Source of the DNA: Nemertoderma westbladi
Lineage: Eukaryota; Animalia; Xenacoelomorpha
Reading direction: 5' to 3'
Assembly: GCA_032718475.1 (NCBI GenBank)
Contig: JAUCBJ010006864.1
Coordinates: forward strand, 38,350-102,349
Length of the DNA stretch: 64,000 bases
The translations under genes were made by a program, and so were the position numbers. Numbering within the stretch: position 1 is the first letter of the stretch; every line of letters begins with the position of its first letter. Under the pieces are notes generated by a model. It did no database searches and was not told where the DNA came from. It saw only the letters and a program-made list of their open reading frames with translations. This document shows, piece after piece, positions 2,125-25,616 of this stretch.

Positions 2125-4572
2125 TATTTATTTTATTTATTTATTCCTTTATTTCAAACCAAACAAGGTTCATAGTAAAAACAATACACCGATCAGACAA
2201 TATAGTTTACACGATACAGTACTAAATTATGAAAATGAATATTTAATAGCACAATATTTAGATATTAATCGTAAAGTAGGGACAGGTCATTCATGGCCCT
2301 AATTCTAGATTCTGTGCAACATGTGCGAATCACATTAATAATGCTATTGGTACTGGTATCCAAGCGCCGTGATAGGCTCTCAATAGCATTGGCTCTAATA
2401 TGTACAAAGGATGGTAATCCAAGTAAGCTGCAGGTTAGCGACATACTTGTGGGAGTTGTGTCGTTAGCCATTCTCGGAATTTTAAAAAGCATTCGAATGC
2501 TACTATTATATGCAGTGCGCAATTTGTTGTGGACAGACATAGAATAGTTCGCTCTAGCCCACAGCGCGTTGCCATAAACATTAGTACAATAGGAACGAAA
2601 AAGACGTATTTTTACATTCCTAGCACAATTACCAAAATTCCTAACCAAGTAGTTTGCTCTTGCATACAACGCACAAGTCTGGCGCTTTACATCATAATCA
2701 TCGTCAGTAGACGAGTGGATTACGTGGCCAAGAAATACAATTTTATCTACAATATCAATAGGAGTGCCTAATAAGTACACATTACCAAATATAGACTTGC
2801 TACAGCATTTCGGGATAAAATATATACATTTTGTCTTTTTTAAATTAAACTTAATTGAGAATAGGTCAGCATAATCCATACATATATTTAGTAGTTGTTG
2901 TAAACCAAACATAGTATTGGATAGCAGTGACAAATCGTCCGCATATCCTACGTGATTGATCCTTCTACCGTTAATAGAGCAACCAAAATTGCACCGATTT
3001 AAAGCTGCACTTAAATCATCCATATATACGTTAAATAAATATGGGCTCAGGATCCCCCCTTGTTTTGTACCATTGGTGACATGAAATTTACTCGAACTAA
3101 ATTTACCCCACGAAACAAACAGTAATTGGTTACGATACCAAAAGCATATTATTCTAACAAAAATAACCGGTACACCCCTAGTAATTAATTTAGAAAATAG
3201 TAAATAATGATTACATCGATCAAATGCCTTGCTGGCATCCAACATACAAGTAAATACCGGGCTATTATTTTGTAAATAAAAATTTACTGTCTCCTTAAAA
3301 GCGAGGATACACAGTTCAGTGCCCGATTTCGGTTTGAAACCAAACTGATTGTCTGTAGTATCTAAGTATCTACTTACATTAGAAAGTATCAGCCTCTCAA
3401 ATAGTTTGGAGAATACAGTTGAGATTGCAATACCTCTATAATTATCACTCGAGGTGATATCACCTGTCTTGTCCTTAATTAAAGGAAGTATCTTAGACTC
3501 AATAAGGCCCGGTGGTATATAGTCATGGCACAACATTGAATTAAATAAACAAGATAGAATGCTACACAATAACTCTGTACAGCCGTATTTAAGATGTTCC
3601 GAAGATATATCATCTGTACCTATTGCTTTACCAACGGCCAATTGGCTAATAGAGTTAAAAATATCCTCTTTACAAAATGTATAATCATTAACGGAGGGAA
3701 TACTTTCAAATTGACTCTCAACAAAAACTCGGCTAGTGTCAGGAAGGTCACAGTTATATAACTTGAAAAAATGATCCTTCCAGAGGTTTCCTATTTGCTC
3801 TTCGCCTACGGCTTCCCCGACCTTGTTAGGGAGAGGGCTCTGGTTGGTCGATACTTTATGTACCTGAGACCAAAACTTAGTGCTACCAGCAGTGGAGTCT
3901 AACATCGCGTCAGCCAGTTTGCCATCACGTATCTCCCGTTCGCGACGCTTAACCTGTCGTAAGACACGCTTAAACCGCGCTTTTGATGTTAGGTACTGCT
4001 GGTAGGCGGCACCTTGTCTAGGCGAGCCCTGGGATCGCCATAAACGAAAAGATAGGTGAGCCTCATTATGGAAAGAATCAACATAGTCATTCCATCCAGG
4101 TATCTGTTTATCTGCAGATCCCGTTGCACCTTTATGTATCACAGTTGGTATAGTCCTATCAGCAGCTACTTTAAGCGCCTCGCAAACTGCGATATATAAT
4201 TTTTCAATTGCACCACTATGACATTCATTTGCACATTTGGTATTATTGCAACGATTTAATATATCAATTAGTTCATCTACGTTATTATTTATTAATAAAT
4301 TATCTATTAATCTGTGATAATAAGTAATATTGTCAGGGGAGGCTTTACTCCAATTCAAACTCGATTTGGTTGTACCACTATTTGTACTGCTGCTATTAGC
4401 ACCTATTGAAATATTAATATGAATATTAAAACGTATGGGCTTGTGGTCAAGTAATACAGCACTATAGTCTATAAAAAAGTTATTTACAGCACCTGTAAGG
4501 CCGGCCGTACAAACAACGTGGTCTAACCACGAAGTCGTACCATGAGCACCACTAACGAAAGTATACGAGTTA
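2125..4572 (-). mobile_element. 5'-truncated LINE (APE end + RT), young, inserted in the Gypsy RNase H
   Basis: (TAAA)n-like tail at 2125-2150 and TSD TCTATT at 2119-2124 and 4573-4578. Removing it restores Gypsy PLAF-YSRKL. Confidence 0.92.
2265..4571 (-). CDS. LINE ORF2, 5'-truncated (endonuclease C-terminus + reverse transcriptase); clade uncertain
   Basis: The frame stays open upstream of the listed ORF to 4571 (YTFVS..TSWLDHV..DHKPI). RT motifs NYRGI, QFGF, LDASKAFD, GTKQGGILSP and YADD are present, with no internal stops. Confidence 0.9.
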   Translation of the reverse strand, partial: NSYTFVSGAHGTTSWLDHVVCTAGLTGAVNNFFIDYSAVLLDHKPIRFNIHINISIGANSSSTNSGTTKSSLNWSKASPDNITYYHRLIDNLLINNNVDELIDILNRCNNTKCANECHSGAIEKLYIAVCEALKVAADRTIPTVIHKGATGSADKQIPGWNDYVDSFHNEAHLSFRLWRSQGSPRQGAAYQQYLTSKARFKRVLRQVKRREREIRDGKLADAMLDSTAGSTKFWSQVHKVSTNQSPLPNKVGEAVGEEQIGNLWKDHFFKLYNCDLPDTSRVFVESQFESIPSVNDYTFCKEDIFNSISQLAVGKAIGTDDISSEHLKYGCTELLCSILSCLFNSMLCHDYIPPGLIESKILPLIKDKTGDITSSDNYRGIAISTVFSKLFERLILSNVSRYLDTTDNQFGFKPKSGTELCILAFKETVNFYLQNNSPVFTCMLDASKAFDRCNHYLLFSKLITRGVPVIFVRIICFWYRNQLLFVSWGKFSSSKFHVTNGTKQGGILSPYLFNVYMDDLSAALNRCNFGCSINGRRINHVGYADDLSLLSNTMFGLQQLLNICMDYADLFSIKFNLKKTKCIYFIPKCCSKSIFGNVYLLGTPIDIVDKIVFLGHVIHSSTDDDYDVKRQTCALYARANYLVRNFGNCARNVKIRLFRSYCTNVYGNALWARANYSMSVHNKLRTAYNSSIRMLFKIPRMANDTTPTSMSLTCSLLGLPSFVHIRANAIESLSRRLDTSTNSIINVIRTCCTESRIRAMNDLSLLYD

Positions 4573-4990
4573 TCTATTCACGGAAACTCACTAAGAATGA
4601 ATCAACATGGTCTACATACGATAGGGAACTCCTTGCAGCTTTATGAAGCAACCATAAATCTCCAGAACGCCTTGGAAGGAAAACATGTGACATTATATAC
4701 CGACCATAAACCCCTCGTTTCAGCATTTTACAAACAAACCACTGTTTCACCACGACAACAGCGACAGCTTTCATTCCTCTCAGAATTTTTCGACTGTGTC
4801 TTATACATTCCTGGGAAATCCAACATTGTTGCTGATACTCTATCCCGGCAAGCCTCGTCGACCCATGTGGACATTTTTGGTTTAGATGAGATTGCAGTCA
4901 CTCAAGCTGAGCAGACAGATCCTCTAGATGAAGCTACCTCATTCCAGATAAAAAAAATTCCCCAGGACCTCTGGCCTTGACCTAACTTGT
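4573..4990 (+). pseudogene. Gypsy pol fragment 2 (RNase H)
   Basis: Reads YSRKL...STYDRELLA, then after a frameshift LYTDHKPL...RQQRQLSFLSEF...YIPGKSNIVADTLSR. Confidence 0.9.
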
Positions 4991-5470
4991 TGTAAAGGCT
5001 TTTGCGGGATTAGCTAGTCATTTTTTCCCCGCAAAGTACTCTGTAGATGTTTTGAAGGACATAAAAGTCGTTTCCTTACTGTACCGGTATTTTAGTGGAC
5101 ATAAAAAGCTATTTTTCTGTATGTGTACTTTGGCGGACACAACTAGCAATCCTATGTCGCAATTAGGGTTCAACAGAAGGCACTTTATGGGGCCGAACCG
5201 AACCGAACCGAAGCAGGGACAACTTCGGGCCGAACCGAACCGAATCCGAACCGAAGTTCAGAAAGTTAGCAAATTGTGGTCATAAATTCGTATTTACGAC
5301 ACTATACTGGCAGTGGCAGTGGCAGACTGTTACCTATTTGGTCTGCTGACTTAGCGAGAAAGCTATGATTAATTAAAAAAATAAATACTACAAAATAAAA
5401 TGGCAATATTTACATTACTATACATTACTAACCTAAACTACTGTATACTTACTGTATGCATGCACTTACT

Positions 5471-6457
5471 TATTTTTTTTTTTCATTTCATTTTTATTCC
5501 AGACATTGAATTATACAATATATTATTACATTATTTTAGTAAAACATTATATAATACCCGTCCATATCATTTATAAAATTGAGCACAATTATTGAATTAT
5601 TAAATACATACTGCTACCTACACTACGGAAAAATAATTTACCAGAGCCTAATATTTAAACATATTGGTGGGACCGTATTATTGACACACTTCGAAAATTC
5701 TAGACACCATATGGCAATTATTACTTATTGACTTCAATACATTATTATCAGTTTTTTTCCAACCGATGGAGCAGACTAGTGTTAGCTTTATAGATATTAT
5801 CACTGAACAGTGGTAGTTTTAACTGATGTAGTGAGAGCGAAATACTTGTCGTCTCGCCGTTTGTCATTCTTGGAATCTTAAATAACTGCCTAGCAGCGTT
5901 ATTGTATGCTACGGAAATCTTATTATATATGCTATTTGAATAGTTGCGGCGAGACCACAAAGCACAGCAATAAACCTGAGTACAATATGCACGAAATAAA
6001 CAAAGCTTTATAGCTGTCGAGCAGCTACCGAATTTACGCACAATAATGTTTGCACGAGCATAAAGAGAACCCATCTGGGCCTTTATATCTTGTGTATCAT
6101 CAGTACTACTGCACAAAATATGTCCTAAATATGATAATTTATCAACAATATCGATTTCTTTACCGTATAACAACACTTTTGCAACTGATGTATTTTTAAA
6201 GCACTTTGGAATAAAATATAAACACTTTGTTTTCTTTGTATTGAATAAAATCGAATTTTGATTAGCATGTGATACGGCCTTATTAATTAATATTTGTAAT
6301 CCTACAATAGAGTTTGACATTAAACATAAATCATCGGCATACAGTATATTATTAATTCTAGAATTACCAATCATACACCCGACACCTGTGTCTGAAAGGT
6401 CGGTGCTCAGATCATCAAAATATACGATAAACAAAATCGGTGAAAATAAAACGAAAA
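5471..6457 (-). mobile_element. LINE 3' fragment (RT C-terminal half) nested in the hAT
   Basis: ORF 5748-6434 has YADD and LYARANIIVRKFGSC..LFRAYC, related to the LINE at 2125-4572. A-rich tail at 5471-5498 and a candidate TSD ACTTACT. Confidence 0.85.
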
Positions 6458-6548
6458 ACTTACTGTATGCACCACATTTTCACCCGTAGTAAGCCGTACA
6501 GTAGTAAAATCAAATTTAGAAAACCTCACTAAAAGTACAGGTACAGTC

Positions 6549-6686
6549 GGACAGTGGTGCAGACAGTGGTGCAGACACTGGTGCAGACACTGGTGCAGAC
6601 AGTGGTGCAGACAGTGGTGCAGACAGTGGTGCAGACACTGGTGCAGACAGTAGTGCAGACACTGGTGCAGACACTGGTGCAGACAC
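6549..6686 (+). repeat. 12-bp minisatellite (GTGCAGACAGTG/CTG)n, left arm
   Basis: About 11 units. It is inverted relative to 7368-7566. Confidence 0.9.
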
Positions 6687-7367
6687 CTGGTGAAAATACT
6701 GAAATACCAGAGTACCACAAAACACAATACCACCAGGCACTATTATATTATATTTTATCATAGACTTTATTATCTACAAATATGCGAGTAACTACTGAAA
6801 GGTTCTACATGAAGTAGGGAGGACGTATGTAGTACAAGTCGGGGTGCGTGCGGGTGAATGTGCCCTGATTACAAATAATTAAAAGAGGTGTGTACGAAAG
6901 TAATTAATCGGTATTCCCGTATTCATATAAACAATAATGTCTATAAATTGTAAGCAGCAATGTCTCCAAGGAATGAGTTTTAAGCGACAGTGTTTGATTG
7001 TTTTTACATGACCTACTTTATACAGAGTATGTTTAATTTGTTTACCTTTACGGGAGCCACTGCTTATTACTGTATAATAAAACGAGCTCATTAAGTTATT
7101 TTCTCGTGCTGGGCAGCTGGGGATATACATTCACTAACTCCAGTAAGGTCTCAGGAATTCTTAGCCCGCGAGTATTCTTGGCTTGCGAGTATTCTTGGGT
7201 ATACTTAGCCCGCAAAACAATAACGTTTATTGTTTTGGTTCCCCCAATACTCCTCTGAAACTGTGAAACCTGCTCCTTTACTAAACTGCTCCTTTACTAA
7301 CCTGCTCCTTTACTAAACTGCTCCTTTACTAACCTGCTCGCCCCTTTACTGTCTGTACCAGTCTGCC

Positions 7368-7566
7368 AGTGTCTGCACCACTGTCTGCAGCAGTCAGCAG
7401 TGTCTGCACCAGTGTTGCACCCTGTCTGCACCACTGTCTGCACCACTGTCTGCACCAATGTCTGCACCACTGTCTGCACCAGTGCGTGCACCACTGTCTG
7501 CACCATAGGTGTCTGCATCACTGTCTGCACCATTGTCTGCACCACTGTCTGCTCTGCACCAGTGTC
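7368..7566 (-). repeat. 12-bp minisatellite (CACTGTCTGCAC)n, right inverted arm
   Basis: Reverse complement of the 6549-6686 unit, more degenerate. Confidence 0.88.
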
Positions 7567-8830
7567 TGCTTAACGTTTACACTCCAAAATTAATTAGTAC
7601 AACGATGGACAGATTGATTAGTCTTACTGTCTTCTGGTCTTAGCTCAATCAGTCAATGTAATACTTGGAATATTTAGCAAAGTTTGCTCCGGGCTTCTGC
7701 AGTATCAATTGCAGAAGCCGAACCGAACCAAAATTGCCAAACTTCGGCCCGAACCGAACCGAAGCCGAAGCTTCTGTTGAGCCCTAGTCGCAATATGCCA
7801 TAATACTCTCTACACAGAGTAGTTCAGATTACGACATCTATCAGCTGATTTGGTGTACTCGTGGAAGTTTCTTTGTTCAGGCCCACTCTGTGCAATCACT
7901 CAACCAATCAGAGCGATTCTCTTGCTTTTTGTACAGAAACCTCCGAGAAATCGCGCAATGCATTACGGTTTATGTTTACCTTTTTTCCTGACGCCACGAA
8001 CATCGGCTGTGGAATAATTCTGTGTTTCAGACTTTAGCCAAACATTAGAACGGCTTGATTACAGGAACATATAACTGTTACCAGTACGGTACCGGTACCT
8101 TACGGTACCACCGTGCACTCAATGCATTATGGCCTTTCACCGCATTATTTTACTGCTATTTACTGTCGGTTATTAATTGTATCAGTTGATGGAATATTAT
8201 TGTTTTTTGGATAATATCGAGAAAGAATCATAAAAACCCCATCTTCTTGATATACTGAAGGTAAGAGACAGGTTACATATAGCAATTGCGACTCATATTA
8301 TATTGGTTTTGGAGTGAATCTAATGCTATTTCATAAGCACTACATGGGTCAATTGCTGTTCTCTTTATATGTGACTAAAATTAGTAAAGGTCGGCAGATT
8401 GGTGTGCAGTATTGTGCGATAGAGTGCATGGTTTGCCTGGTAACTAAGCATCTCCTAAAGAATGCGCCTTATACGTGAATCATAAGCCATACCGTTGTGT
8501 TTAGTATAAGTCATAACTCTGTTTACATAATTAGAGCGCAACGTCCTAAAGGAACTGTTAATATTTCCCAAAAGTGAATAATATTTGTCAGAGATTATAT
8601 ATTAACGATCAATCGAATAATACAGTAGGCTTACAACGCAATAAGGTCAAGTCTTCCGAATCCAGTCTCCCGGGTATATCCAACGGGTGAATGGTCGCGC
8701 ACTAGGCTGGCTTCGGCTAATGTAGTGTTTATTTGTATCAAATACTTGTCATAGGCTAAAGTCGATTTATAATCTAAAAGACATATAAATTTGGCAGGTT
8801 AAACTGCTAAAGGTCTTAAAAGCGCGAACA

Positions 8831-8841
8831 GTAACAGTTAT
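8831..8841 (+). promoter_or_regulatory. Atypical primer-binding position GTAACAGTTAT, complementary to LTR-internal ATAACTGTTAC (8071-8081)
   Basis: No TGG follows the LTR. A perfect 11-nt complement is present in both LTRs. Confidence 0.55.
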
Positions 8842-9110
8842 TGCTTCTTTATTGCGGCGTAAGCAATAAAGCTGAAGTACCGGTCGACCGGTAACCTGTA
8901 GGCCTAACTACCTAACCACCGGAACCGGTACTTACAACAGTACCGTACATCAGTATTATTTCGATTGTGATATATTGTATATTGTAGGCTGTTAGGGGAT
9001 TAGGGATTGATCACCCCTTACTCCTTTGTATGGTTTACTTATTTCTGTCAGTTTTATTTACGTGTAAGTTAATATTGAGCAGAAGACGTGTAAGCCTGCT
9101 CAGATTGTAC

Positions 9111-9685
9111 AGATAATTTGTAGGCTGGACTGTTGTCTGACTGTTGTTAGGTCTGAAGACATTGCGGTGTGTGTAGAGTGTATGTCCGATAAAGTGCCGG
9201 TTAGGAATGTAGGGGCTTCCAGTGCTGTGAGGTAAACCCCCTCGAAAGAATAAGTCGTACTACTCGGTTAGAACGCATACTAACTAACCATTTCGGAGTC
9301 TGCATATACTGTAGTTTATTTAGGCCTGATAGTAGTCTGCCAGCGTTTGGTTTGTATTTTGTTTGTGTAGTCTGTACAGGTAGTGTAATATTTCTTATTT
9401 AGATAATTTGTAGGCTGGATTGTTGTCTGGCTGTTGTTAGGTCTGAAGAGATTGTGGTGTGTGTAGAGTGTATGTCCGATAAAGTGCCGGTTAGGAAAGT
9501 AGGGGCTTCCAGTGCTGTGAGGTAAACCCCCTCGAAAGAATAAGTCGTACTACTCGGTTAGAACGCATACTAACTAACCATTTCGGAGTCTGCATATACC
9601 GTAGTTTGTTTAGGCTTGATAGTAGTCTGTCAGTATTTGATCTGCATTTTGTTTGAGTAGTCTGTACGCGTAGCGTAATATTTAT
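9111..9685 (+). repeat. 290-bp tandem duplication in the BEL 5' leader
   Basis: AGATAATTTGTAGGCTGG starts at 9111 and at 9401, and the copies are highly similar. Confidence 0.9.
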
Positions 9686-11035
9686 TAATCAGAGTTTATG
9701 CGATTATTCGCAACATTCATATCCCCAAGTTTATTCCTACAGTAATTCAGTAATTGTGCTTGTTATATATACCGTTATAGTTAAATTAACACCGGTACTA
9801 CATCAGGGCTGCTTGGCGTAGGTAAAGACTGGAGATTTTGTGCTTTGGTCACTCCAGCAGATACCGTGGTTCTTTTAGCTGTTCAAGTATTTTTAACTAC
9901 TGATTATTTGTTGTATAAGTACTAGTACCTAATTTAGGGTTTAGTGTACAGTGCTTTCCGAAGGTGATTAGTGTGTAGGCAGTATATTTGTGTTGTAAAG
10001 TGGTTAATAGGCACGTTGGTTCTGGTAGACCGCGGTAATTAAATTCTAGGTAGGAACACTCCGTGATACATAACGTAGTACTTATAGCGATACGGCTATA
10101 AGTCGTCAGACGGTGGTATTTTCCTATCTGGACAACGCAGTATATTTACTACCGCTTAGTTATTTTCAAATACCATAGTACCCTGTCCGTTGTAATAACC
10201 AGATATTCTAACCCTTTGTTAGGCTGGTTTGTAGACTCCCTGTAAAATTACCCTAAAAATTCGTACTTATAATTTTTTGTGTTTATTTAGAGATTGTAAT
10301 CTCACACCGAATTGTACGTAATTTGTAGTATTAAGTAACTTAGGTAAATTATAATTATTTGTTTTAGTGTCCAACAAGTAGCACTTCACTGAGAGCGCAC
10401 AGCTTCTGTGTAGTGACTTCCCCCAGAAATAATAACATTTATTTCAAATATTGACAAAACCCATTAAACGGGTATATATATATATTATAAATCAACTCAA
10501 ACGATTTATAAATAGTAGGCCTGCCATACAATAATTAGGTCTCAATATCAGTTGGACTACTGCTCAAATAACGGTAATAAAGTAAGTAAAGTAACCAAGT
10601 AACCCCTAAAATATTCAGAAATCCAATTATTTAAAATAATTGACATACCGGTATTTACAATAGGCTTATTATATTTATTTCTATAAAATTAGGCTGAAAT
10701 TATACCGGTATTCTGTAATTAATTCTAGTCCATAATTATACTTATATACTATAAGTGTAAGCTGTATATACCGGTATTCGCGATAGGCCTATTATATATT
10801 TATATATATTTGTGCTGGAATTACATACCGGTATTCTGTGACAAACCTAGTTTGTAATAATACTTATATATACTATATGTGTATACCGGTATTCTAATAT
10901 ATTGTATAGGCCTATATATCACGTTACACTGAGTAACGGTATCGGTAATTAATCGCTAGGCTTGCAGTCATACTGAATCACTAGACTTGCTTTAACTGTA
11001 ATTATAGCAGTAGGCATTCAACTGTACAAATAAAC

Positions 11036-14000
11036 ATGTCTGACGCAAAGCAGAACCTGTCAGACAGTCTACTAGATACAACCGAAAGCAAAGTGACAGC
11101 AGAGAGACCGCGAACGAGAGACGCTATCGACATCTATCTGTCAGACTATCAACGTTTCCTAGGTGATGAAGAGTTGAGGAGACGACTGTCTGGACTTCGC
11201 CCTAATAGTGAAGGAGCCAAGCTTGTGTTGGACGCAATCGATGTAGATAGGTTAGCTGCGAACCAAGCTAAATTCGATGAAAGCATCCGCCTCACTAAGG
11301 TTCAAGAGGAACAAGTAAAGAAAAAACGGATAGAAGACAGAAAGACAGCAGCAGCAGCAATGGCAGCGGCAGAAACGGAAAGAAAAGCGACAGAGGCAGC
11401 GGCAGAGGCAAAAGCAGCAGCTGCAGCAGTAGAAGCGGAAAGAAAAGCGGCAGCGGCAGAGGCAAAAGCAGCAGCTGCAGCAGTAGAAGCGGAAAGAAAG
11501 GCGGCAGCGGCAGAAGCGGAAAGAAAGATAGCAGTGGCAGAAGCAGAACGGAGGGCATCTGAAGAGACAACCCAACTAGAGTTGGAAAATCTTCAAGAGA
11601 GGCAAGACAACTTCAATAAACAGTTAACAGCTAGTCAAATCCAGATGATGAGACGATCTACTCACAAACGGCAGGGATTTACATCATCTGATGAAGGCGA
11701 TACCACCGATCCTGAAGGTGGATGAAATAGATCTCGTCTAAGCAGCCGTAGAAGAATGTCCCACCGTCAGAAATTGCCTGATTTGCCCCCAACTGTTAGA
11801 AGGCAACTAACTAACACAGGCTTAGGTAGTACAGAACCCACAGACCAAATAATTAAAATAGAAAGACTCCCTACTATAGTAGATGAGCCTGAAATAATTA
11901 GGCCTGTTCTTGAAATCACCCCTTCGGTGATAGAGACACCTGTGCTCCCAGAACCTATCTCTAAATTCCCTCTTCACAGCACTAGACTGCCTGTGCCCCA
12001 CAGAACCACCCCTGAAAATGTTCATGTCCCTGACTCCGAGCGAAATATTAATGATTTGTCGCCCGTTGTCCCTCGTCCACCCGCTACAACGTTGGTGAAT
12101 CCTGCTTCGGCGGTTGATTGGGTGGATGAGAGACAGCGGGGGATGGATCTCCTGCTCGGGCAGATGCAGGAGACTGTTAAGCAGTTCAAGGGCACAGTAA
12201 GGGAAAGTAGGTTAGAGTTGCAAGAAGTGCAGCAAAGTATCACGTTAGAACGCGATAAATTAGTAAATACACAAAAGGGTATACCACCACCCCCGGTAAC
12301 AATGTGTCAACCTGTTAGGTCTGAAGTATCTCATGCGCAAGGTGTGGAGCCTACACGCATCTATACTGCTAGCGAAGTAGAAACTCCTATAGTGAACCCT
12401 ATTAAGGGTAATTATAAACCTGTGGACAATGATATTCCCTATAGACCTGATTATAATCCGAGAAATTTATATACCAATAACTCGATATTAAATAACACGA
12501 TGGCCCAAGAAAGTTTTACTCGTCAAATGGCTAGAACCGAAGCCCATCAAGCGGTAAAGGTGGGAGAGATTAGTCAAGTTCAATGGAGATGAGATGAAAT
12601 GGTTACCTTTTAATGAATATTATAAAGATAACATACAGAACTCTGTGATATCTAACGGAGAGAAACTGAGATTCCTCATCGAGTGTTTGGAAGGATCTCC
12701 CAAGTTAATGGCGTTAAAGTTTATTGGACATCCAGATGGATTAAGACAAGTTTGGGATACACTAAACATCAGGTATGGTAATAGGACTAACATAGCTAGG
12801 TATTTATATGCGAAATTAATGGCGCCCCGAAAGTTTCTTAGCAGCGGGATTATAGAGTTTTCCGACGAGATTCAGGAGATCTGTAGACAACTAGATTGGT
12901 TAGGTAAGTCTCATGAATACCAGAATTCTATGGTTGTAGGAGCCTTAGCATCTACTTTGCCCAAGGGTAGAGTAGGTACACGCTGGGACAAGAAAGTGTT
13001 ATATATGATGGAACAACAACGAAGAGACCCTACCATGGCTGATCTCATGTCATTCTTAGACAGAGAGGTAAAATTACAGCTCCTAAAACAGTCCAGAGAG
13101 AAGACACCGGAAAATAAGGTAAGTGAGAAACCCGTTTCTAGGAGAAAGGTAATACCAGTGTGTTATACCGACGACGGCGAAAGCCAGACTTCTCAAGGAG
13201 AGGACAGCGGGAAAGACACTGAAAGATCTTATTATGTCAATAAAACGCCTAAAGAACAGGTAAGTAAATTCAAGTCTCGAACCCATGACAGGAGAGAACA
13301 GATAAGAAAAACTCCTCCTACGTCTCCTAAGAGAATTCATAGAAGAAAGCCCGAGGAAAGAACAAGTGTGCACCGCACAGCACAGGTTAAAGTAAGTAAC
13401 ATCAAGCCCAAATGTGTGTTGTGCGACGGGCCCCACCGTTTAAGTGCGTGTGATGAATTCCTGAGGAAATCATTAAAAGATAGACGTGAAGTCATGTGGG
13501 ATAAGCGGTTGTGTTATAATTGCCTCAGACGAGGACACCAACGGCGAACCTGTTACTCTGACGCAAGGTGTGCAAAGTGCGGTGCAAAACATCATATCTT
13601 GTTGCACACTGAATTTGAACGAAACAGCCCGAGTCAGGTAAGTGAGTCCGAACTGCATGTCCAATTCAGTGATGTGAACGACACTGACCAAAGTTCTGAG
13701 ATGGAAGGATTCTATACAGACGAATTCTCCGACCAAGACGAATCCTGTTACCTAATAAATACCGCAGTGTATCGAGCACTTAAGTATGAAAGAGACCCCG
13801 ACAGCGACCTTACCCTAACTACTTCTGATCGACAACCATCTTGGAAAGCGCCAACTTCCAATGTAGGAATCCGAGAATTTCCTGTAGTACAGTTAAGGGT
13901 CCACGGACCTAAAAGGAGTTATATAGTGAACGCCCTCCTTGACTCCGGTAGCACAGGAACATTCATCGACAAAGAACTAGCCGAAGACATCTTTGCTGGA

Positions 14001-14846
14001 CAACCCAAGTTCCGAACTAAGCTAAACATGTCAGGAATTATGCAGGTTTGGAAATCTACCGTAATAGCTGATTATTATGTAGGTGCATTGTCCACCCCCC
14101 AGGATGAACTAGGAGAACATAGTATAAGGTCAGTAAAGATGGTGGCGATAAAGAACTTCGCTACCAGCCAAGTGGAACCTTATAACTGGGATGAGGACGA
14201 TTTCACCCAGCAGCTTGAAATACCTAGATTCGACACCGATTACCCTGGAGTGCAAATACTCATCGGTCAAAACGCGCATGAAGCACTCGAGACATTGGAG
14301 AAACGGCCTGCTCAACCGCAACCACTACAAACTTATGCGGGAAGAACTAGAGTAGGTTGGTACCTTACTGGTCCGTCCCGTAGAACACTCATGGAAAGGT
14401 TGCCCAAAGAACGGGTCTACCACGTAATTAAATGGGAAGTGGAGAGCAGTGAGGTGGACGATCCAACTGAGGAAATACCATACTCCTCAGATAATGACGA
14501 TATTAACTCCAATGTAGATCAATGGAGACATTGTCTTGGGATGATTAATCCAGCCGACATCGCTTCCAGAGGAGCAACTCCTCAAGAACTGATAGATACT
14601 CCAGGTTGGCTAGGTGGACCCGACTTCCTAAGTAAAGAAGAAGATGAATGGCCTCCTCATCTTACCACGGTGGAGATTAGACAGGCCAAGGGAGCGGAGA
14701 AAGTAACACAACAACTCAATCACCCAGCTGGTCGTTTATGTTTACTGGAAAGAGACCGAAAACTGTCCGGAAACTATGGAAGGCAAGATACTCTTCCTAC
14801 GACCACCTCCCTAATCCGACAAATATCTAGGGACTCCATAACATAA
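11036..14846 (+). pseudogene. BEL/Pao gag-protease fused to the RNase H C-terminal tail; one in-frame TGA (11723) and one frameshift (about 12570)
   Basis: Ala/Glu coiled coil, then FNGD..W..F / EKLRFL (DUF1759-like). Knuckles are CX2CX3HX4C, CX2CX4HX4C and CX2CX3HX4H. Also ALLDSGS, ILIG and QWRHC.G..NPADIASRG...WLGGPDFL. Confidence 0.88.
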
Positions 14847-15370
14847 CAACATACGGAGTGGGTGTGTGACTATATTATTTTATATTTGTTTTTTATTATT
14901 TTATATTTATGTACGTATTATTATGTAATTTTATTATAATCGTTTTCTTTAATTTTATTTAGTAGAAGGTTATTTAAGCGATTATTTAGTAGATTAGTGC
15001 AATATATTAGTGTTTATTACTTAAGTACTTATATATTATATATTTAGTGCGACGGCAAGAAATAATTATTTTTCTTTTTCCTTACTGTCCGTATCATATT
15101 ATAAATACGTGACTACAGTAAGATGAAATATCTGTACTTATTAAAGTACCATAAAGCTCCTACTATATTCAAGTATTATTGGTAGGCAGAGTATTAGGAA
15201 TGCAAAGTTCAGATCCTCGTGTCTCGGCTAAACCAAGCTCTGGGTAGACCTTGGAAACGACTTGCCTCTTCACACTGACATTGCTTCGTGTGATATTGCT
15301 CTCATACCGTATATTAAATAATACATATAGTAGCGTGATGTCTCTTTAACAGTAGCGTAAAACGCAAAAT

Positions 15371-15682
15371 AAATCTGTTAAACCCTTTGACCATCTGTAA
15401 TTCTAGTCGATTAAGATATCGCGGCACCCACCGATATACTTGAAAGACAAAATTTAGAATCAGTGGTTAACGTTCCCAGACAAGTTCTGGAATAAATTGG
15501 TACCCATCTTAAATATTATATAATTAATATTTATAAAATTCTATAAATCAAAATCCGTTAAAATTTAGATCCTTTGGAATTATAGTCAATTAAGATATCG
15601 TAGTACTTACCGATACTCTTAAAAGGACAAATTTCCTAGAATTAAGGATCCTCGTCCCCAGACATGCTCTGGAATAAAATTG
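15371..15682 (+). other. Two diverged copies (15371-15500, 15551-15682) of a predicted structured RNA module in the BEL 3' region
   Basis: Both copies form the same long hairpin plus a CCAGA-N5-TCTGG hairpin, with compensatory stem differences. Confidence 0.55.
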
Positions 15683-16505
15683 TGTCTATTTAATATTAAA
15701 TAATAAAATTACGGGAATAAATTTAAATTCATTTTTAATGAATTTGATAAGTTGTTATTTTATACAATTTATAACATTCCCAAAATTCCATTAATTAATA
15801 GATCATGGGAGCGGAGATTCACCCTATTAAGTGTATGAGAGTGCGAGAATCTCCAATATATGGTCAATAGCCGATAAAATTCATAAAATCATATATAAAG
15901 AGGGATATTGACAATTAAAGAATTACTATTAAATAGCATTCCAGATCTGTATGCATGAGAATTACCCTAATTCTACTGCTAGCTTTCCATAATGTCACCA
16001 TAGCAACAACCACGCTAGAATTAGAAACGAGTTAACAGAACAATAAAAGCTTGCCCATTGAATAGCATACGGAATAAATAGCACACCGCGAGTATCCAAG
16101 GATACACAATAACAACGTGACATTCTGGAAAGCACTTGACTAACGGACAAATGGCCCGAATGTGTGATAGAATGTGTACAATTTGTGACAGTTACGTGGA
16201 ATTTGTGCGTTTGTAGGTGAATGTTACTACTAAGGTGTGTTTACAGTAGCGAGTCGCAGTTGTGAAAGTAACCTTAACTCTGCAGTAAGAACCTGAAGTA
16301 AATCTATGCCCTTGGGACGGACAGTGGAGTGACTCGTGCCGGTTATCGTTGTCGTTGTGTAGCTACTACGTTGGCGAAAAACACAGCGACGACGGTATAT
16401 CGGCGCTGAGGATCTTGCACTGTCCGGGGGCTGAGAGGGGTAGGCGGCGAAGCTCGCTGGCCTAATTATAACTCATTATAACATTGATAAACTCATATAG
16501 CAGAT

Positions 16506-18047
16506 ATGACTGAGTTGATAGAAGATGATCTTGGTATCAGGGAGCGATATACTCTACCTTTACAAGCGTTTGTTGATAGCTTGATACGCGGCGACGCTGG
16601 TCCAACTACTACGAAGGACGATGGTCGTTATATCGAACCGCCAATGTCCCAGGAGCAACTTACGCGTGAGTTGGACTATAGAAAATTCACCGCTCGCTAT
16701 ACGCATCGTAATGGTACGTATATGGGCTTCTTAACTACTGGTCATCCTATCGATTTACACGATACGGACGATGTCGACACCGAAAGGGAAATGGTTTTAT
16801 TTAAATATCATACCCAGCGGAAGCGGAACGATAAACTGAGACTCGAACACGACAATTCTATTTGAAACCGACTCGAAAGTGTAGGATGTTGAAGAGCCGG
16901 ATAAATGCAGCGACTTCAACAAATATCTGGAATTCTTGAGAGAAACATATCTCAATATTACCAGTCAACAGAATCTAGAAACTCGATATCCTCAAGGTAT
17001 ACATCATGACCGCATGGTAGAACTCAAACGGCTCTATTCCACTATGATGTATCTTACCGCCGATCGATCGCTACCTGTTGTATCGGATAGCTTCGAACAG
17101 ATGGAGGAATATTGTAAACTGGAGAAAGATCACTCGCGTTTCCCCTACAAGACGTGCGTCTTTGGTATTATTGCGATGAATGCCCTAGACCCAACCAACA
17201 AACGGAAAGACATAAACATCTGCGGAGATGTTGCGCTAAACACGGTTTTACTCGCTATACTTACGGGAGTTTCGAGCAAATTTGTTTGACGTATCACCTA
17301 CGCTCGTTCGACTCAGACGATCCTTAAATAAACCAATGATCAGAGTTCCGGAATACTTGATCAGACCTCCTCATTCCATAATGAGACCTCAGACTCTTGA
17401 TCCTATTAGTATGACGGATCCTCCCGAGCTGTACTCACTGTTCAAAGATCTAGTGTTAACCTAACAATTAGTCGGTGGCACTCCGGTTGTGGGCTCCCTA
17501 AATATCCGCCCATCTTACCTGGCCAGATTGGGGCGCGGACACCTAATATCGCCATTCAACCATATAATCTTCCCCGTTCAACACGATACAACCCGTCATC
17601 GAGGTGGAGGAGAGCGTTGCACGAAACGAGTTAGACGCTATTCTACCAAAGATCAGAAAAGAAACCTACGTTTGTTCAGATAAACTTAAATTGTAACAGC
17701 AAGTCCAAGCGGTAAACGGATTGACTTTATCTCAGTTCGATCGGGAAATCCAGAATCTCTAGGACGATATCGAACTTGGACGACCCTATTATCTACGAGA
17801 GTTTTTGGACGAACGTATCCAACGACGAGCGGAGGAAAATCAGCTCGAGGAGAAGCATATCGAAATGGACGAGACACCGGCCGTAACCCTAAACCTTCTG
17901 ATGCAATTGTATTGCACCCTTCCCGCAGGAGTTATAGCCCTCCTAGTAAAGTGGCTCGCCCCAAAGAGAAAAGGACTCTTGCTAGTCTCAAAAAACTGCG
18001 TAAACGCCGTCCTCGCAAGAAAAACTAACTGTTTAGAGTATTCTTAG
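16506..18047 (+). pseudogene. Disrupted additional 3' ORF of unknown function inside the BEL element (about 500 codons)
   Basis: Consecutive coding-like + strand ORF pieces, joined by stops and frameshifts, run up to just before the PPT. There is no recognisable RT, INT or env motif. Confidence 0.6.
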
Positions 18048-18106
18048 ATTTTAGAAACTGTGATTTTTTATATTTTATAGAATTAAATCCCATTTTCTGG
18101 GAGCGG

Positions 18107-19315
18107 TGTAAAGGCTTTTGCGGGATTAGCTAGTCATTTTTTCCCCGCAAAGTACTCTGTAGATGTTTTGAAGGACATAAAAGTCGTTTCCTTACTGTAC
18201 CGGTATTTTAGTGGACATAAAAAGCTATTTTTCTGAATGTGTACTTTGGCGGACACAACTAGCAATCCTATGTCGCAATACGCCATAATACTCTCTACAC
18301 AGTGTAGTTCAGATTACGACATCTATCAGCTGATTTGGTGTACTCGTGGAAGTTTCTTTGTTCAGGCCCACTCTGTGCAATCACTCAACCAATCAGAGCG
18401 ATTATCTTGCTTTTTGTACAGAAACCTCCGAGAAATCGCGCAATGCATTACGGTTTATGTTTACCTTTTTTCCTAATGCTACGAACATCGGCTGTGGAAT
18501 AATTCTGTGTTTCAGACTTTAGCCAAACATTAGAACGGCTTGATTACAGGAACGTATAACTGTTACCGGTACGGTACCGGTACCTTACGGTACCACCGTG
18601 CACTCAATGCATTATGGCCTTTCACCGCATTATTTTACTGCTATTTACTGTCGGTTATTAATTGTATCAGTTGATGGAATATTATTGTTTTTTGGATAAT
18701 ATCGAGAAAGAATCATGAAAACCCCATCTTCTTGATATACTGAAGGTAAGAGACAGGTTACATATAGCAATTGCGACTCATATTATATTGGTTTTGGAGT
18801 GAATCTAATGCTATTTCATAAGCACTACATGGGTCAATTGCTGTTCTCTTTATATGTGACTAAAATTAGTAAAGGTCGGCAGATTGGTGTGCAGTATTGT
18901 GCGATAGAGTGCATGGTTTGCCTGGTAACTAAGCATCTCCTAAAGAATGCGCCTTATACGTGAATCATAAGCCATACCGTTGTGTTTAGTATAAGTCATA
19001 ACTCTGTTTACATAATTAGAGCGCCACGTCCTAAAGGAACTGTTAATATTTCCCGAAAGTGAATAATATTTGTCAGAGATTATATATTAACGATCAATCG
19101 AATAATACAGTAGGCTTACAACGCAATAAGGTCAAGTCTTCCGAATCCAGTCTCCCGGGTATATCCAACGGGTGAATGGTCGCGCACAAGGCTGGCTTCG
19201 GCTAATGTAGTGTTTATTTGTATCAAATACTTGTCATAGGCTAAAGTCGATTTATAATCTAAAAGACATATAAATTTGGCAGGTTAAACTGCTAAAGGTC
19301 TTAAAAGCGCGAACA
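18107..19315 (+). repeat. 3' LTR of the BEL element (1209 bp)
   Basis: Runs TGTAAAGG...GCGAACA and is followed by the TSD CTTGT. Confidence 0.95.
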
Positions 19316-20320
19316 CTTGTGACGTAACTACTGCATATCCATGACCAATTCTACCAGAAAAACTGCGAAAACCAATATTTAATGAGCTGCATGGATAAAA
19401 AGCAACTGTTCGAATAATAACCAGCCGATACATTTGGAAGCATGCCAAGAGAGATATCACTGAATGGTGGTGTAGAGCCTGCCTTACATGCCAACAAAAT
19501 AAAATCCTTAACATTGGAAGGCTCCTCTTAAACCATTCCCACTAACTCAGAGATTTACCCACGTTCACTCCGATATTGTTGGACCCCTACCAACATGTAC
19601 TGGCGACCAACCATATCAATACATTGTGACCTTTATAGACCGCAATACAGGACGGGTTAAGGCAAGTCCAGTTACTTCAATAACTGCTGAATCCACAGCT
19701 GCAGCATTTATCCAGAGTTGGTTCTCACGATTTGGTAGACCTCTCTATCTAACAACTGACAGAGGTAAACAGTTCGAGTCTGAACTCATGTCTAAGATTT
19801 CCAAACTCATTGGTTTTCAGCGTATGAGGACTACTTTATACCACCCACAATCCAATGGAAGATAGAAAGATTTCACAGAATAATGAAATCTCCACCCAAA
19901 GCCCGAAAGGAAGAGTGGTGTGACGCCCTACCCATTACTCTCTTCAGTCACCATATCACAGAGTCCCATGTAACAGGAGTCTCGAACTTGTTACTGGCTC
20001 AAAGGCTCTCCTCCCAGCCAGTGTAGTACCAACAGATGAGACATTCAATTCGGACTTCGTAAACAAACTACACAAACATGAAATCGAGTACCGAATAATA
20101 GAGAATTCTAATAGCCACATTGCAACCGCGACAAAAACTCACGTTCCAGCGCGACTACAGACTTGTGAACAGGTGTTCGACCGGGTTAAGAAACCACTTG
20201 AGGCGCCCTATCAAGGCCCCTTCGAGGTTTTGACACACTCAGACAAACTATTTGTGATACTAAAACACCTGCAGGCGAACAGACTATCTATCGATCGCTT
20301 AAAGCCGTGCCACATACTCT
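19316..20320 (+). pseudogene. Gypsy pol fragment 3 (integrase)
   Basis: Motifs ELHG...CRACLTCQQNK, HVHSDIVGPLP, TFIDR, TTDRGKQFES, YHPQSNG..ERFHR, PYQGPFEV and IDRLKP, with stops and frameshifts. Confidence 0.9.
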
Positions 20321-20367
20321 GTACTGTTTAAACCCCACCCACCATTCCATTTTTAGGATGGTGGAGT

Positions 20368-22661: not shown

Positions 22662-23396
22662 TAGGCCTAGGTGATTATAGCTGAGTATAGGTGAGTACGG
22701 TGTTAGCACGAACCCATTGCTTGAGATTCCAACTTTCAACTCCAAGTAAGATACTGTAGAACATTGTCTACTGGATTTTGAAAGTTGAAAGTTTACTTGT
22801 TATATGTGTTAATAATTTAATATCGTACACGAGCCTAAACTCGGCACTTCGTAAGTAGAAATTTACACCATTATATATAACAATATAGCATAAAATGTAT
22901 AGCCTAGCGCTAGCCTATCTAATTAATAATGCGCAACGCAAAGTAACTACAAACAATACCATTTCCCCCATAGATAATTGGCGCCAACTACTAGCGAGGT
23001 ATTGTTAGACAACCTCTGTTACGATTTTCTACAGTGACGAGGCCGCAAACCTTCCATTGTAAAGTTCCAGTATTTTTGTATTCCCTGAATCAATCACATA
23101 GTGTTACCCACCGATGTTGGTAAGGGATAGAGGCTCGATGTTCTTAGTAGCTACCGGTGTATTTGTTACATCTAGTGTATATTGGATCTAATAGGTACCG
23201 AATTCTATACCCACGTCCACTTATAAGGCGCTCCACTGCCCTAAGCATTGTAGCTGCTGCATTCAGTATTACAGTCAGCCAAACCCATAAAGTATTAAAG
23301 GCCCCGCCTGGTGAGGTTTGTGTCATTAATTTCACTTATATTGGTAATATTTAGGATGTCACATTTATACGTCAGTTAGTCTGAATTGTATTAAAT

Positions 23397-25616
23397 ATGT
23401 CTTCGAATACTTTTAGTGACGCTGCTTGGGATTTACTGGATCGTATCATGGCAGATGAAAGTGATTCTCAGTCCGGTGATGAGGAACAAGAGAACTGCGT
23501 CGCTCCACCAACTGTTAATAAAGAAATCGAGACAAACAGCGGTATAAACGTTATCAGTTTTAAATCGGAAGCGGAACCTATTTGCGGTACTTCAGAAGAT
23601 AAATCTCGAAAGATCAAACAAGAGTTCTGTACAGATGAACAATATTCTAATTATCAAATCAGCAACACAAACAGCGGTATTAACGTTATCAGTTTTAAAT
23701 CGGAAGCGGAACCTATTTGCGGTACTTCAGAAGATAAATCTCGAAAGATCAAACAAGAGTTCTGTACAGATGAACAATATTCTAATTATCAAATCAGCAA
23801 CACAAACAGCGGTATAAACGTTATCAGTTTTAAATCGGAAGCGGAACCTATTTGCGGTACTTCAGAAGATAAATCTCGAAAGATCAAACAAGAGTTCTGT
23901 ACAGATGAACAATATTCTAATTATCAAATCAGCAACACAAACAGCGGTATAAACGTTATCAGTTTTAAATCGGAAGCGGAACCTATTTGCGGTACTTCAG
24001 AAGATAAATCTCGAAAGATCAAACAAGAGTTCTGTACAGATGAACAATATTCTAATTATCGAATCGGTAACACAAACAGCGGTATAAACGTTATCAGTTT
24101 TAAATCGGAAGCGGGAGCTATTTGCGGTACTTCCGAAAATAAATCTCGAAAGATCAAACAAGAGTTCTGTACAGATGAACAATATTCTAATTATCAAATC
24201 AGCAACACAAACAGCGGTATAAACGTTATCAGTTTTAAATCGGAAGCGGAACCTATTTGCGGTACTTCAGAAGATAAATCTCGAAAGATCAAACAAGAGT
24301 TCTGTACAGATGAACAATATTCTAATTATCGAATCGGTAACACAAACAGCGGTATAAACGTTATCAGTTTTAAATCGGAAGCGGGAGCTATTTGCGGTAC
24401 TTCCGAAAATAAATCTCGAAAGATCAAACAAGAGTTCTGTACAGATGAACAATATTCTAATTATCAAATCAGCAACACAAACAGCGGTATAAACGTTATC
24501 AGTTTTAAATCAGAAGCGGAACCTATTTGCGATACTTCCCAAAACAAATATCGAGTTGTAAGACAAGATTTCTGTATTGAGAAACAATCTGCTTGTGAAG
24601 TTATTGCTAAATCCGTTCTCAAGGGTAAGCGAATTAATCGTAAAGTAAATTTAAAGAATCGCAAACAATCATTGCATAAAAGTATCAAGTATAATTGTGG
24701 GTCTTGTGACAAACAATTTACTCGCAAATGGTATCTAAATATCCACAAAGAAGCAAAACATAAAGGTATCAAATATAATTGCAGTTCTTGTGACAAGCAA
24801 TGTAGTGACAAAGGATATCTGAAGAGACACATAGAATCAGTAAATAAAGGTATCAAGTATAAATGCGGTTCTTGTGAGAAACAATTTAATTACAAAGGGG
24901 ATCTAAAGAGACACATGGAATCAGTACATAAAGGTATCAAGTATAAATGCGGTTCTTGTGACAAACAATTTACTGACAAAGGAAATCTGAAGAGACACAT
25001 ACAGTCTGCTCATAAAGGTGTCAAGTATAAATGCGGTTCTTGTGACAAACAATTTACTCAAAAAGGACATCTAAGGACCCACATGGAATCAGTACATAAA
25101 GGTATCAAGTATAATTGCAGTTCTTGTGACAAACAATTTAATTACAAAGGGGATCTAAAGAGACACATGGAATCAGTGCATAAATGTATCAAGTATAAAT
25201 GTGGTTCTTGTGAGAAACAATTTACTGACAAAGGAAATCTGAAGAGACACATACAGTCTGCTCATAAAGGTGTCAAGTATAAATGCGGTTCTTGTGACAA
25301 ACAATTTAGTGACAAAGGGAGTCTAAATAGACACATACAGTCTGCTCATAAAGGTGTAAAGTATAAGTGCGGTTATTGTGACAAACAATTTACTGTATAT
25401 GGGAGTCTAAATAAACACATACAGTCTGCTCATAAAGGCATAAAGTATAATTGCGTTTCTTGTGACAAACAATTTACTGAAAAAGGATATCTGAATAGAC
25501 ACATTCTATCAGTCCATAAAGGTGTGAAATATAAATGCGGTTCTTGTGAGAAACAATGTAGTCAAAAAGGGAATCTAAAGAATCACAAACACTCAGTTCA
25601 CAAAGACACCAATTAA
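23397..25616 (+). CDS. Tandem C2H2 zinc-finger protein (11 fingers, HX4H, HKG[IV]KY linkers) with an N-terminal 45-aa repeat array
   Basis: Uninterrupted 739-aa ORF with fingers spaced 28 aa apart (finger 2 has H->N). Seven full and one partial 135-bp repeats lie at 23533-24540. Confidence 0.9.
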   Translation: MSSNTFSDAAWDLLDRIMADESDSQSGDEEQENCVAPPTVNKEIETNSGINVISFKSEAEPICGTSEDKSRKIKQEFCTDEQYSNYQISNTNSGINVISFKSEAEPICGTSEDKSRKIKQEFCTDEQYSNYQISNTNSGINVISFKSEAEPICGTSEDKSRKIKQEFCTDEQYSNYQISNTNSGINVISFKSEAEPICGTSEDKSRKIKQEFCTDEQYSNYRIGNTNSGINVISFKSEAGAICGTSENKSRKIKQEFCTDEQYSNYQISNTNSGINVISFKSEAEPICGTSEDKSRKIKQEFCTDEQYSNYRIGNTNSGINVISFKSEAGAICGTSENKSRKIKQEFCTDEQYSNYQISNTNSGINVISFKSEAEPICDTSQNKYRVVRQDFCIEKQSACEVIAKSVLKGKRINRKVNLKNRKQSLHKSIKYNCGSCDKQFTRKWYLNIHKEAKHKGIKYNCSSCDKQCSDKGYLKRHIESVNKGIKYKCGSCEKQFNYKGDLKRHMESVHKGIKYKCGSCDKQFTDKGNLKRHIQSAHKGVKYKCGSCDKQFTQKGHLRTHMESVHKGIKYNCSSCDKQFNYKGDLKRHMESVHKCIKYKCGSCEKQFTDKGNLKRHIQSAHKGVKYKCGSCDKQFSDKGSLNRHIQSAHKGVKYKCGYCDKQFTVYGSLNKHIQSAHKGIKYNCVSCDKQFTEKGYLNRHILSVHKGVKYKCGSCEKQCSQKGNLKNHKHSVHKDTN

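Follow-up and report, generated by a model that had tools for sequence, protein, structure and literature searches.

How does a BEL/Pao LTR retrotransposon start its minus-strand DNA when no TGG follows its 5' LTR? BEL/Pao is one of the three LTR superfamilies of animals. According to the ICTV, the Belpaoviridae are tRNA-primed through an 18-nt site complementary to the 3' end of a host tRNA, and BEL/Pao replication is called poorly understood (PMC8742986); the BEL/Pao element Achilles has a tRNA-Tyr site, as stated in the accessible part of PMC4580426. For an element in the 64-kb stretch of DNA analysed here (the window), an earlier note had proposed that it may self-prime in the manner of Tf1. 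We have found that this is the best reading of the evidence: the element probably primes minus-strand DNA with its own RNA, with the enzymes supplied in trans. The proposal is backed by four of five distant relatives without TGG, by its absence from all five tRNA-type controls and by compensatory changes between two sister elements, whereas two of its details, the need for an RNA start at 8071 and a C8081:G8831 pair throughout the family, are not supported.

The element occupies 4991-19315 and is a BEL/Pao LTR retrotransposon flanked by copies of a 5-bp target site duplication (TSD). Its parts are as follows.
4986-4990, no strand: TSD, 5 bp, left copy
4991-5163, plus strand: 5' LTR, first part, starting with TG; identical at 172 of 173 positions to 18107-18279
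5164-7786, no strand: insertion splitting the 5' LTR, with terminal inverted repeats and an 8-bp duplication; LINE RT fragment inside
7787-8830, plus strand: 5' LTR, second part, ending with CA; 12 mismatches in 1044 positions against the 3' LTR
10985-12592, plus strand: N-terminal gag region, with a stop codon (11723-11725) and a shift of frame near 12558-12592
12558-14846, plus strand: Gag capsid (DUF1759), three Cys-His boxes, DSG protease and RNase H-integrase linker motif
18099-18106, plus strand: purine-rich tract immediately 5' of the 3' LTR
18107-19315, plus strand: 3' LTR, 1209 bp, uninterrupted
19316-19320, no strand: TSD, 5 bp, right copy

The end of the 5' LTR at 8830, on which the earlier proposal depended, is borne out by the 3' LTR together with the TSD. 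The two LTRs show 13 differences and the family appears on 545 contigs in the public run X1, from which it is both young and high-copy. The 2.6-kb insertion at 5164-7786 apparently arrived later than the 5' LTR and may be hAT-like; its LINE RT fragment lies at 5748-6479 (minus strand), accompanied by inverted 12-bp tandem arrays.

The BEL/Pao hallmarks are present in the DNA (TG...CA LTR ends, short target duplication, purine tract) as well as in the protein (Gag DUF1759, triple Cys-His box, DSG protease), the protein features being named as hallmarks in the accessible part of PMC554778. DUF1759 in the frame 12558-14846 was matched by Pfam PF03564 (E 4.3e-12), homologues of this frame carry the Pao-specific PF05380, and protein atlas clusters have DUF1759. 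All these features are shared with the Belpaoviridae, and the LTR length is at the top of the range stated for them by the ICTV (PMC8742986). On the other hand, the element differs from them in having neither the 18-nt site for a host tRNA 3' end nor the Pol order of protease, RT, RNase H and integrase. The protease is joined directly to the RNase H-integrase linker motif, and RT, RNase H and the integrase core are absent, the 160 homologues matching only 12576-14654. Since no homologue match falls outside this segment, the element is a non-autonomous BEL/Pao derivative, that is, a defective and incomplete member of the superfamily.

The type of element points to an animal as the host. Some further observations concern the surroundings. 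The element is nested in a Ty3/gypsy-type pol, with an RNase H fragment on the left (4546-4980) and integrase fragments on the right (19512-20331). Its leader of 2.2 kb contains a 290-bp tandem duplication (93%) at 9111-9690. The region 14846-18106 consists of 3.2 kb of AT-rich DNA without family match and with short ORF relics before the 3' LTR; the relics at 16491-18047 gave no Pfam match, and 16885-17286 gave no atlas match above 0.87. No Rfam match was obtained within 4900-19400. Outside the element, a frame of 743 aa at 23385-25616 contains 45-aa repeats as well as an array of C2H2 zinc fingers.

The features that bear on priming lie in the LTRs and directly behind the 5' LTR.
7904-7908, plus strand: sole CCAAT box of the LTR
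8063-8069, plus strand: bulged extension pairing with 8842-8849, by duplex fold; insignificant alone
8071-8081, plus strand: predicted self-primer, exact complement of 8831-8841
8082-8106, plus strand: palindrome-rich stretch 3' of the primer that can pair with leader 8855-8899 (possible second duplex)
8261-8266, plus strand: only strong 5' splice-site-like motif of the LTR
8831-8841, plus strand: primer-binding position without TGG; no variant listed for 8832-8838 in four runs, 8831 G or A
8847-8871, plus strand: 9-bp hairpin with arms 8847-8855 and 8863-8871; AATAAA 8865-8870 in the 3' arm
18556-18566, plus strand: the 11-nt complement again, in the 3' LTR (LTR offset 450-460)

The first TGG 3' of the 5' LTR occurs only at 9031, so a tRNA-type site is missing, in agreement with the earlier statement that nothing there would pair with a tRNA CCA end. 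The exact complement inside both LTRs is equally confirmed. Read in reverse complement, 8831-8841 equals 8071-8081 and 18556-18566 over 11 nt and no further, and the window contains no third place of this kind. A primer site that complements the element's own LTR is a feature shared with the Tf1/sushi group. In dinucleotide shuffles of the LTR, an 11-nt match was reached 25 times in 20,000 at offset 0 and 82 times in 20,000 at offsets 0-5, while two repeat runs gave 19 and 8 in 2,000; the 10-mer without base 8831 was reached in 22 of 5,000 shuffles.

The weaker bulged pairing upstream that had been described is present, extending the duplex to 18 pairs at about -16 kcal/mol, but it adds little weight. 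This energy was matched by 36 of 1,000 shuffles, or by 151 of 1,000 if base 8831 was omitted. Equally strong pairing somewhere in the LTR is seen for 81 of 430 leader windows. The evidential weight is carried by the exact match, not by the duplex energy.

The hairpin reported downstream of the site was found again at 8847-8855/8863-8871. Its loop varies at 58–64% in X1 (8856, 8857, 8862), its inner five pairs are invariant, its outer 5' arm has changes at 14–20% with no listed partner change, and the arm with AATAAA has no listed variant. This AATAAA, outside the LTR and in the hairpin stem, is the only one in the LTR and the first 270 nt beyond; a canonical poly(A) signal is absent from the LTR. 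The 5' arm of the hairpin competes with the bulged extension for pairing.

In folding calculations, the 11-bp duplex has a per-pair probability of 0.58-1.0 for RNAs running from 8071 to 8845-8930, and of 0.1-0.5 when the RNA begins at 7980 or 8020. If the RNA extends to 8960 or 9100, the duplex loses by 1-13 kcal/mol, with a mean probability of at most 0.17. Tf1 requires three duplexes, the so-called 'pretzel', according to the accessible part of PMC10085805; two of the three would cross, and a folding program could presumably not hold both. As regards a second duplex in the window element, the six LTR windows, out of 394, with the best pairing to leader 8842-8900 lie at the primer or immediately behind it. 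This duplex is borderline, being equalled in 12-13 of 1,000 leader shuffles and 94 of 1,000 LTR-segment shuffles with segments that are palindrome-rich, and it is absent from the distant elements L097, L105 and L106 described below. A U5 stem is insignificant (49/300).

We have followed the variation of the family over 8790-8890 in four public runs (X1-X4), which represent 3 samples at most and contigs only, X4 being possibly RNA. No variant is listed at 2% or more for 8832-8838 in any of the four runs, and 8839 is variable in a single X4 contig of low depth. Of 58 loose ends, the 20 listed include sub-families that keep the core and diverge after 8839-8842, and none of the 20 has a TGG-type site within 5 nt of the LTR end. 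At 8831, A accounts for 46,443 of 64,457 depth units in X1, 45,032 of 59,454 in X2 and 24,921 of 52,740 in X3 (72%, 76% and 47% of summed depth, respectively), though part of this signal may come from the flanks of 3' or solo LTRs. The pairing of the 3' C of the 11-mer with the first base after U5, which the earlier note regarded as the orientation needed for priming, thus holds in the window copy, but 8831 is not fixed, and a family-wide C8081:G8831 terminal pair is not supported as far as the family is visible. Because 8831 is A in 47–76% of the depth, 10 sure pairs remain. The main contig seems to stop at 8081 in X1 and X3, which is a hint only. Depth is low at 8054-8097 (filtered records), and X4 has no cover upstream of 8098; neither was counted as evidence.

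Considering elements of other families, we have assembled a panel of distant BEL/Pao elements from eukaryote-type contigs inside bacterial bins. For each, the score was the longest LTR complement of the post-LTR bases at offsets 0-5, either contiguous or across a GT-AG junction, compared with 2,000 shuffles. L094 has 11 nt contiguous (2 of 2,000 shuffles), while three others have 8+3 nt across a GT-AG junction, i.e., L105 (2 of 2,000), L106 (8 of 2,000) and L097 (15 of 2,000, from an inferred LTR end). The splice rule was set after L097 had been examined, which makes L097 post hoc; the rule was then applied unchanged to L105 and L106. L096 shows neither TGG nor complement at two candidate LTR ends. 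Therefore, 4 of 5 distant elements without TGG, from three families and two bins, have an 11-nt self-complement, and the window element under the same score also has 11 nt (8 of 2,000). In the tRNA-type controls (L118, L120, L122, L127 and L130), TGG lies at positions 1-5 and the best complement is 5-6 nt, which is at chance in all five (1,128-1,590 of 2,000 shuffles); they represent four families, one bin and one primer type. Six more elements with a TGG site (L121, L123-L125, L128, L131) are near copies of the tested families and were left unshuffled. Outside the panel are L093, L095, L107, L119, L126 and L132-L135, which have no LTR pair or BEL match, and L136, whose LTR is cut.

Between L105 and L106, two of the three final exon positions have different bases. 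At both, the primer site has changed accordingly, these compensatory changes sitting in an otherwise conserved context. As to the records themselves, L105:1000-1810 and L106:1000-1902 are sister elements with long open frames and AATAAA directly after the match, and L094:6091-13085 is a complete BEL/Pao element with identical LTRs and no TGG, whose complement follows a 4-nt spacer. In the distant elements the complement replaces the tRNA site 0-4 nt after the LTR. In L097, L105 and L106 the match lies 0-7 nt before AATAAA and 44-78 nt from the LTR end. The distance from primer to site is 749 nt in the window element versus 44-99 nt in the relatives. In all four self-complementary relatives and in the window element, AAC in the LTR pairs with GTT in the site; this shared pairing suggests a second possible register, in which the primer would end at 8075 and leave a 6-nt spacer. 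Overall, the panel reveals that the self-complementary geometry recurs in BEL/Pao, and it is not a covariation test for the window family.

At the protein level, the window element scores 92.7 bits with L105, 89.3 with L106, 70.3 with L097 and at most 59.6 with the remaining elements. It forms a long branch (1.86-2.12) with at most 27% identity to any row. In both trees, the second of which comprises 34 of 88 rows, it falls outside the well-supported tRNA-type clade, and its possible grouping with the self-complementary set has support of 57/54.

Where the RNA starts is a separate matter. Folding favours a start near 8060-8071. By the usual spacing of CCAAT boxes, the box at 7904 and the pyrimidine run 7979-7988, a possible upstream start region, would fit a start ~90 nt upstream. 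A TATAA motif at 8070-8074 overlaps the primer; if it were the TATA box, the start would be near 8100, the 11-mer would lie outside the 5' RNA and a model with the primer at the 5' end would be broken. The earlier note had predicted a start at or just upstream of 8071 and had counted a start far from it against self-priming. In view of L097, L105 and L106, the start need not lie there. Their complements are hundreds of bases behind the TATA box, so the primer in them is not the RNA 5' end, and they span a predicted splice junction inside the transcript. Since the match is far inside the transcript in these elements, a start away from 8071 is compatible with self-priming. For the window element, an acceptor-like site with a branch motif ends at 8754, and a possible LTR intron 8261-8754 between primer and site, as suggested by these motifs, could shrink the 749-nt loop to ~255 nt. 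A splice-assembled primer, searched for in the window element by the GT-AG rule, was not found.

Based on the above analyses, the following course can be proposed. The genomic RNA would start at or upstream of 8071, and the LTR bases 8071-8081 would fold onto 8831-8841. The downstream hairpin would fold on itself, possibly helped by the second duplex of 8082-8106 with the leader. A nuclease, which by analogy with Tf1 might be RNase H provided in trans by an intact relative, would cut behind 8080 or 8081 and free a 3' end, and RT would extend this end into U5. Family members that carry A at 8831 would either have a 1-nt spacer there or show the matching change at 8081. Because distant relatives place the primer internally, we do not commit to the primer as the RNA 5' end; that it is the very 5' end seems to us an evenly balanced question.

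Three other explanations deserve to be weighed against self-priming. A host tRNA fragment might be the primer, for example a 5' piece of tRNA-Asn with its anticodon loop on 8832-8837 or 8838, the LTR complement then being chance or a storage fold. In a set of 25 non-host tRNA genes, the best exact matches were those of tRNA-Asn, whose 6-7 nt are as long as the invariant core 8832-8838. If bulges are allowed, one non-host tRNA-Ile half comes to -15.8 kcal/mol, the level of the extended self duplex. A tRNA gene search of the 64-kb window gave none. Half-tRNA priming is known in Ty1/copia lineages, but in the accessible part of the same source, half-tRNAs are described only for Ty1/copia among the plant elements surveyed (PMC6317226). 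Moreover, 6-7 pairs stand against 10-11 for the self-complement, an LTR complement that shuffles put at 0.1–1% would be left unexplained, and neither the compensatory changes of L105/L106 nor the differing sites of L094, L097 and L105 would be accounted for. We consider this explanation unlikely. Slightly less likely again is that the pairing is real with another job, such as an RNA switch for packaging, translation, dimerisation or the hiding of AATAAA 8865-8870, and that priming takes another route. Such a switch would suit the alternative folds, in which the hairpin 5' arm opposes the bulged extension and other partners win in longer RNAs, and also the contrast in X1 between the unvaried AATAAA arm and the uncompensated changes of the 5' arm. 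However, the complement begins at the first post-LTR base, where a primer must bind, it takes the place of the tRNA site in the distant elements too, and no other primer site exists.

The least likely of the three, in our judgement, is that the match is a coincidence, or two copies of a near-palindromic motif (a protein site or a TATA-like box), and that the true primer site has been lost. With A at 8831, the primer site nearly equals its own reverse complement, which blurs direct and inverted likeness; yet the central base of the site is complementary to that of the LTR copy (T against A), not identical. The overlap of TATAA with the LTR copy and the weak energy tests given above would also agree with a coincidence, as would the fact that 11 nt are reached at 4 of 9,249 internal positions. 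Against this, a young, high-copy family needs a working primer site, and the same geometry in other letters is seen in the 4 of 5 distant non-TGG elements. Self-priming by the element's own RNA is the reading we prefer.

Self-priming has been described for the Tf1/sushi group, as far as the accessible parts of PMC10085805, PMC4600332 and PMC5341516 tell. Like the window element, Tf1, Tf2, Tj1 and the Tf1/sushi group have, in these texts, a site beside the 5' LTR that complements their own LTR and no tRNA site. In about half of the Tf1 cDNA, a copy of the primer site is retained. This Tf1 site starts with ATAAC, and its first five bases equal those of the window site when 8831 is A, a weak likeness of five bases (accessible part of PMC11042837). 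The Tf1/sushi elements are, however, Ty3/gypsy chromoviruses, whereas the window element is BEL/Pao by all protein evidence and does not belong to that lineage; unlike in Tf1, its primer and site are 749 nt apart and the primer may lie inside the RNA rather than at its 5' end, and self-priming is here a prediction from sequence. Most likely, the element works like Tf1 while standing outside the Tf1/sushi group. Self-priming has also been predicted for the plant element TAR (Ty1/copia) and for Tcn1, for both of which, as for ours, it was derived from the sequence, and TAR is likewise outside Tf1/sushi (accessible part of PMC6317226). They differ from the window element in superfamily and in kingdom.

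Within BEL/Pao itself, we have found no description of self-priming in the literature searched by title, in which subscription journals are mostly outside the scope. The main text of PMC3118150 nowhere mentions primer, PBS or tRNA, and the accessible parts of PMC3601003, PMC554778, PMC13524379, PMC2864245, PMC8220671 and PMC5443660 contain nothing on it. Self-priming here would be a variant of a known mechanism in a superfamily that counts as tRNA-primed. The C. elegans element Cer7 (Tas clade, BEL/Pao) is reported to carry its own primer-like sequence, a tRNA-like insert in the internal region, unlike the LTR-segment complement of the window element; if so, Cer7 would already have hinted that BEL/Pao elements can prime without a host tRNA.

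If true, self-priming in BEL/Pao would mean that the Tf1 mechanism has arisen independently once more, and it would explain why primer sites of such elements are missing in standard annotation. The elements would presumably no longer depend on the supply of tRNAs and would escape silencing by tRNA fragments. With a primer predicted to the base (8071-8081) and the compensatory pair of L105/L106, the idea is testable. A broader reading, to which we give somewhat less than an even chance, is that a broad part of BEL/Pao gave up tRNA priming and cuts its primer out of the transcript of its own LTR, either contiguous (window element, L094) or spliced by the host (L097, L105, L106). If so, priming would need an internal cut rather than release of a 5' end and would be gated by splicing, and the primer might come from the 3' repeat beside the poly(A) signal.

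Some observations on the sources remain to be given. In the genome screens, PF05380 was found in 3 of 401, 2 of 301, 1 of 58, 1 of 1 and 1 of 201 genomes. The bacterial bins G001, G002, G003, G004, G028 and G073 carry eukaryote-type BEL/Pao contigs (17 DUF1759 matches in G073), and tandem tRNA arrays are seen on contig C35 of the bacterial bin G004; BEL/Pao elements together with tRNA arrays in bacterial bins point to host contamination. Close relatives by protein were sought in metagenome contigs, where none of 17 candidates was confirmed. Besides, 21 metagenome and 71 viral matches to the pattern were rejected as chance, showing nothing beyond the pattern and no BEL protein. Viral contigs yielded one BEL 3' end (L093), and a further viral search gave none. 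In L093:1-1070, a BEL/Pao integrase end and an LTR-like stretch are joined to a phage-like DNA polymerase region, so that this viral contig is probably a chimeric record.
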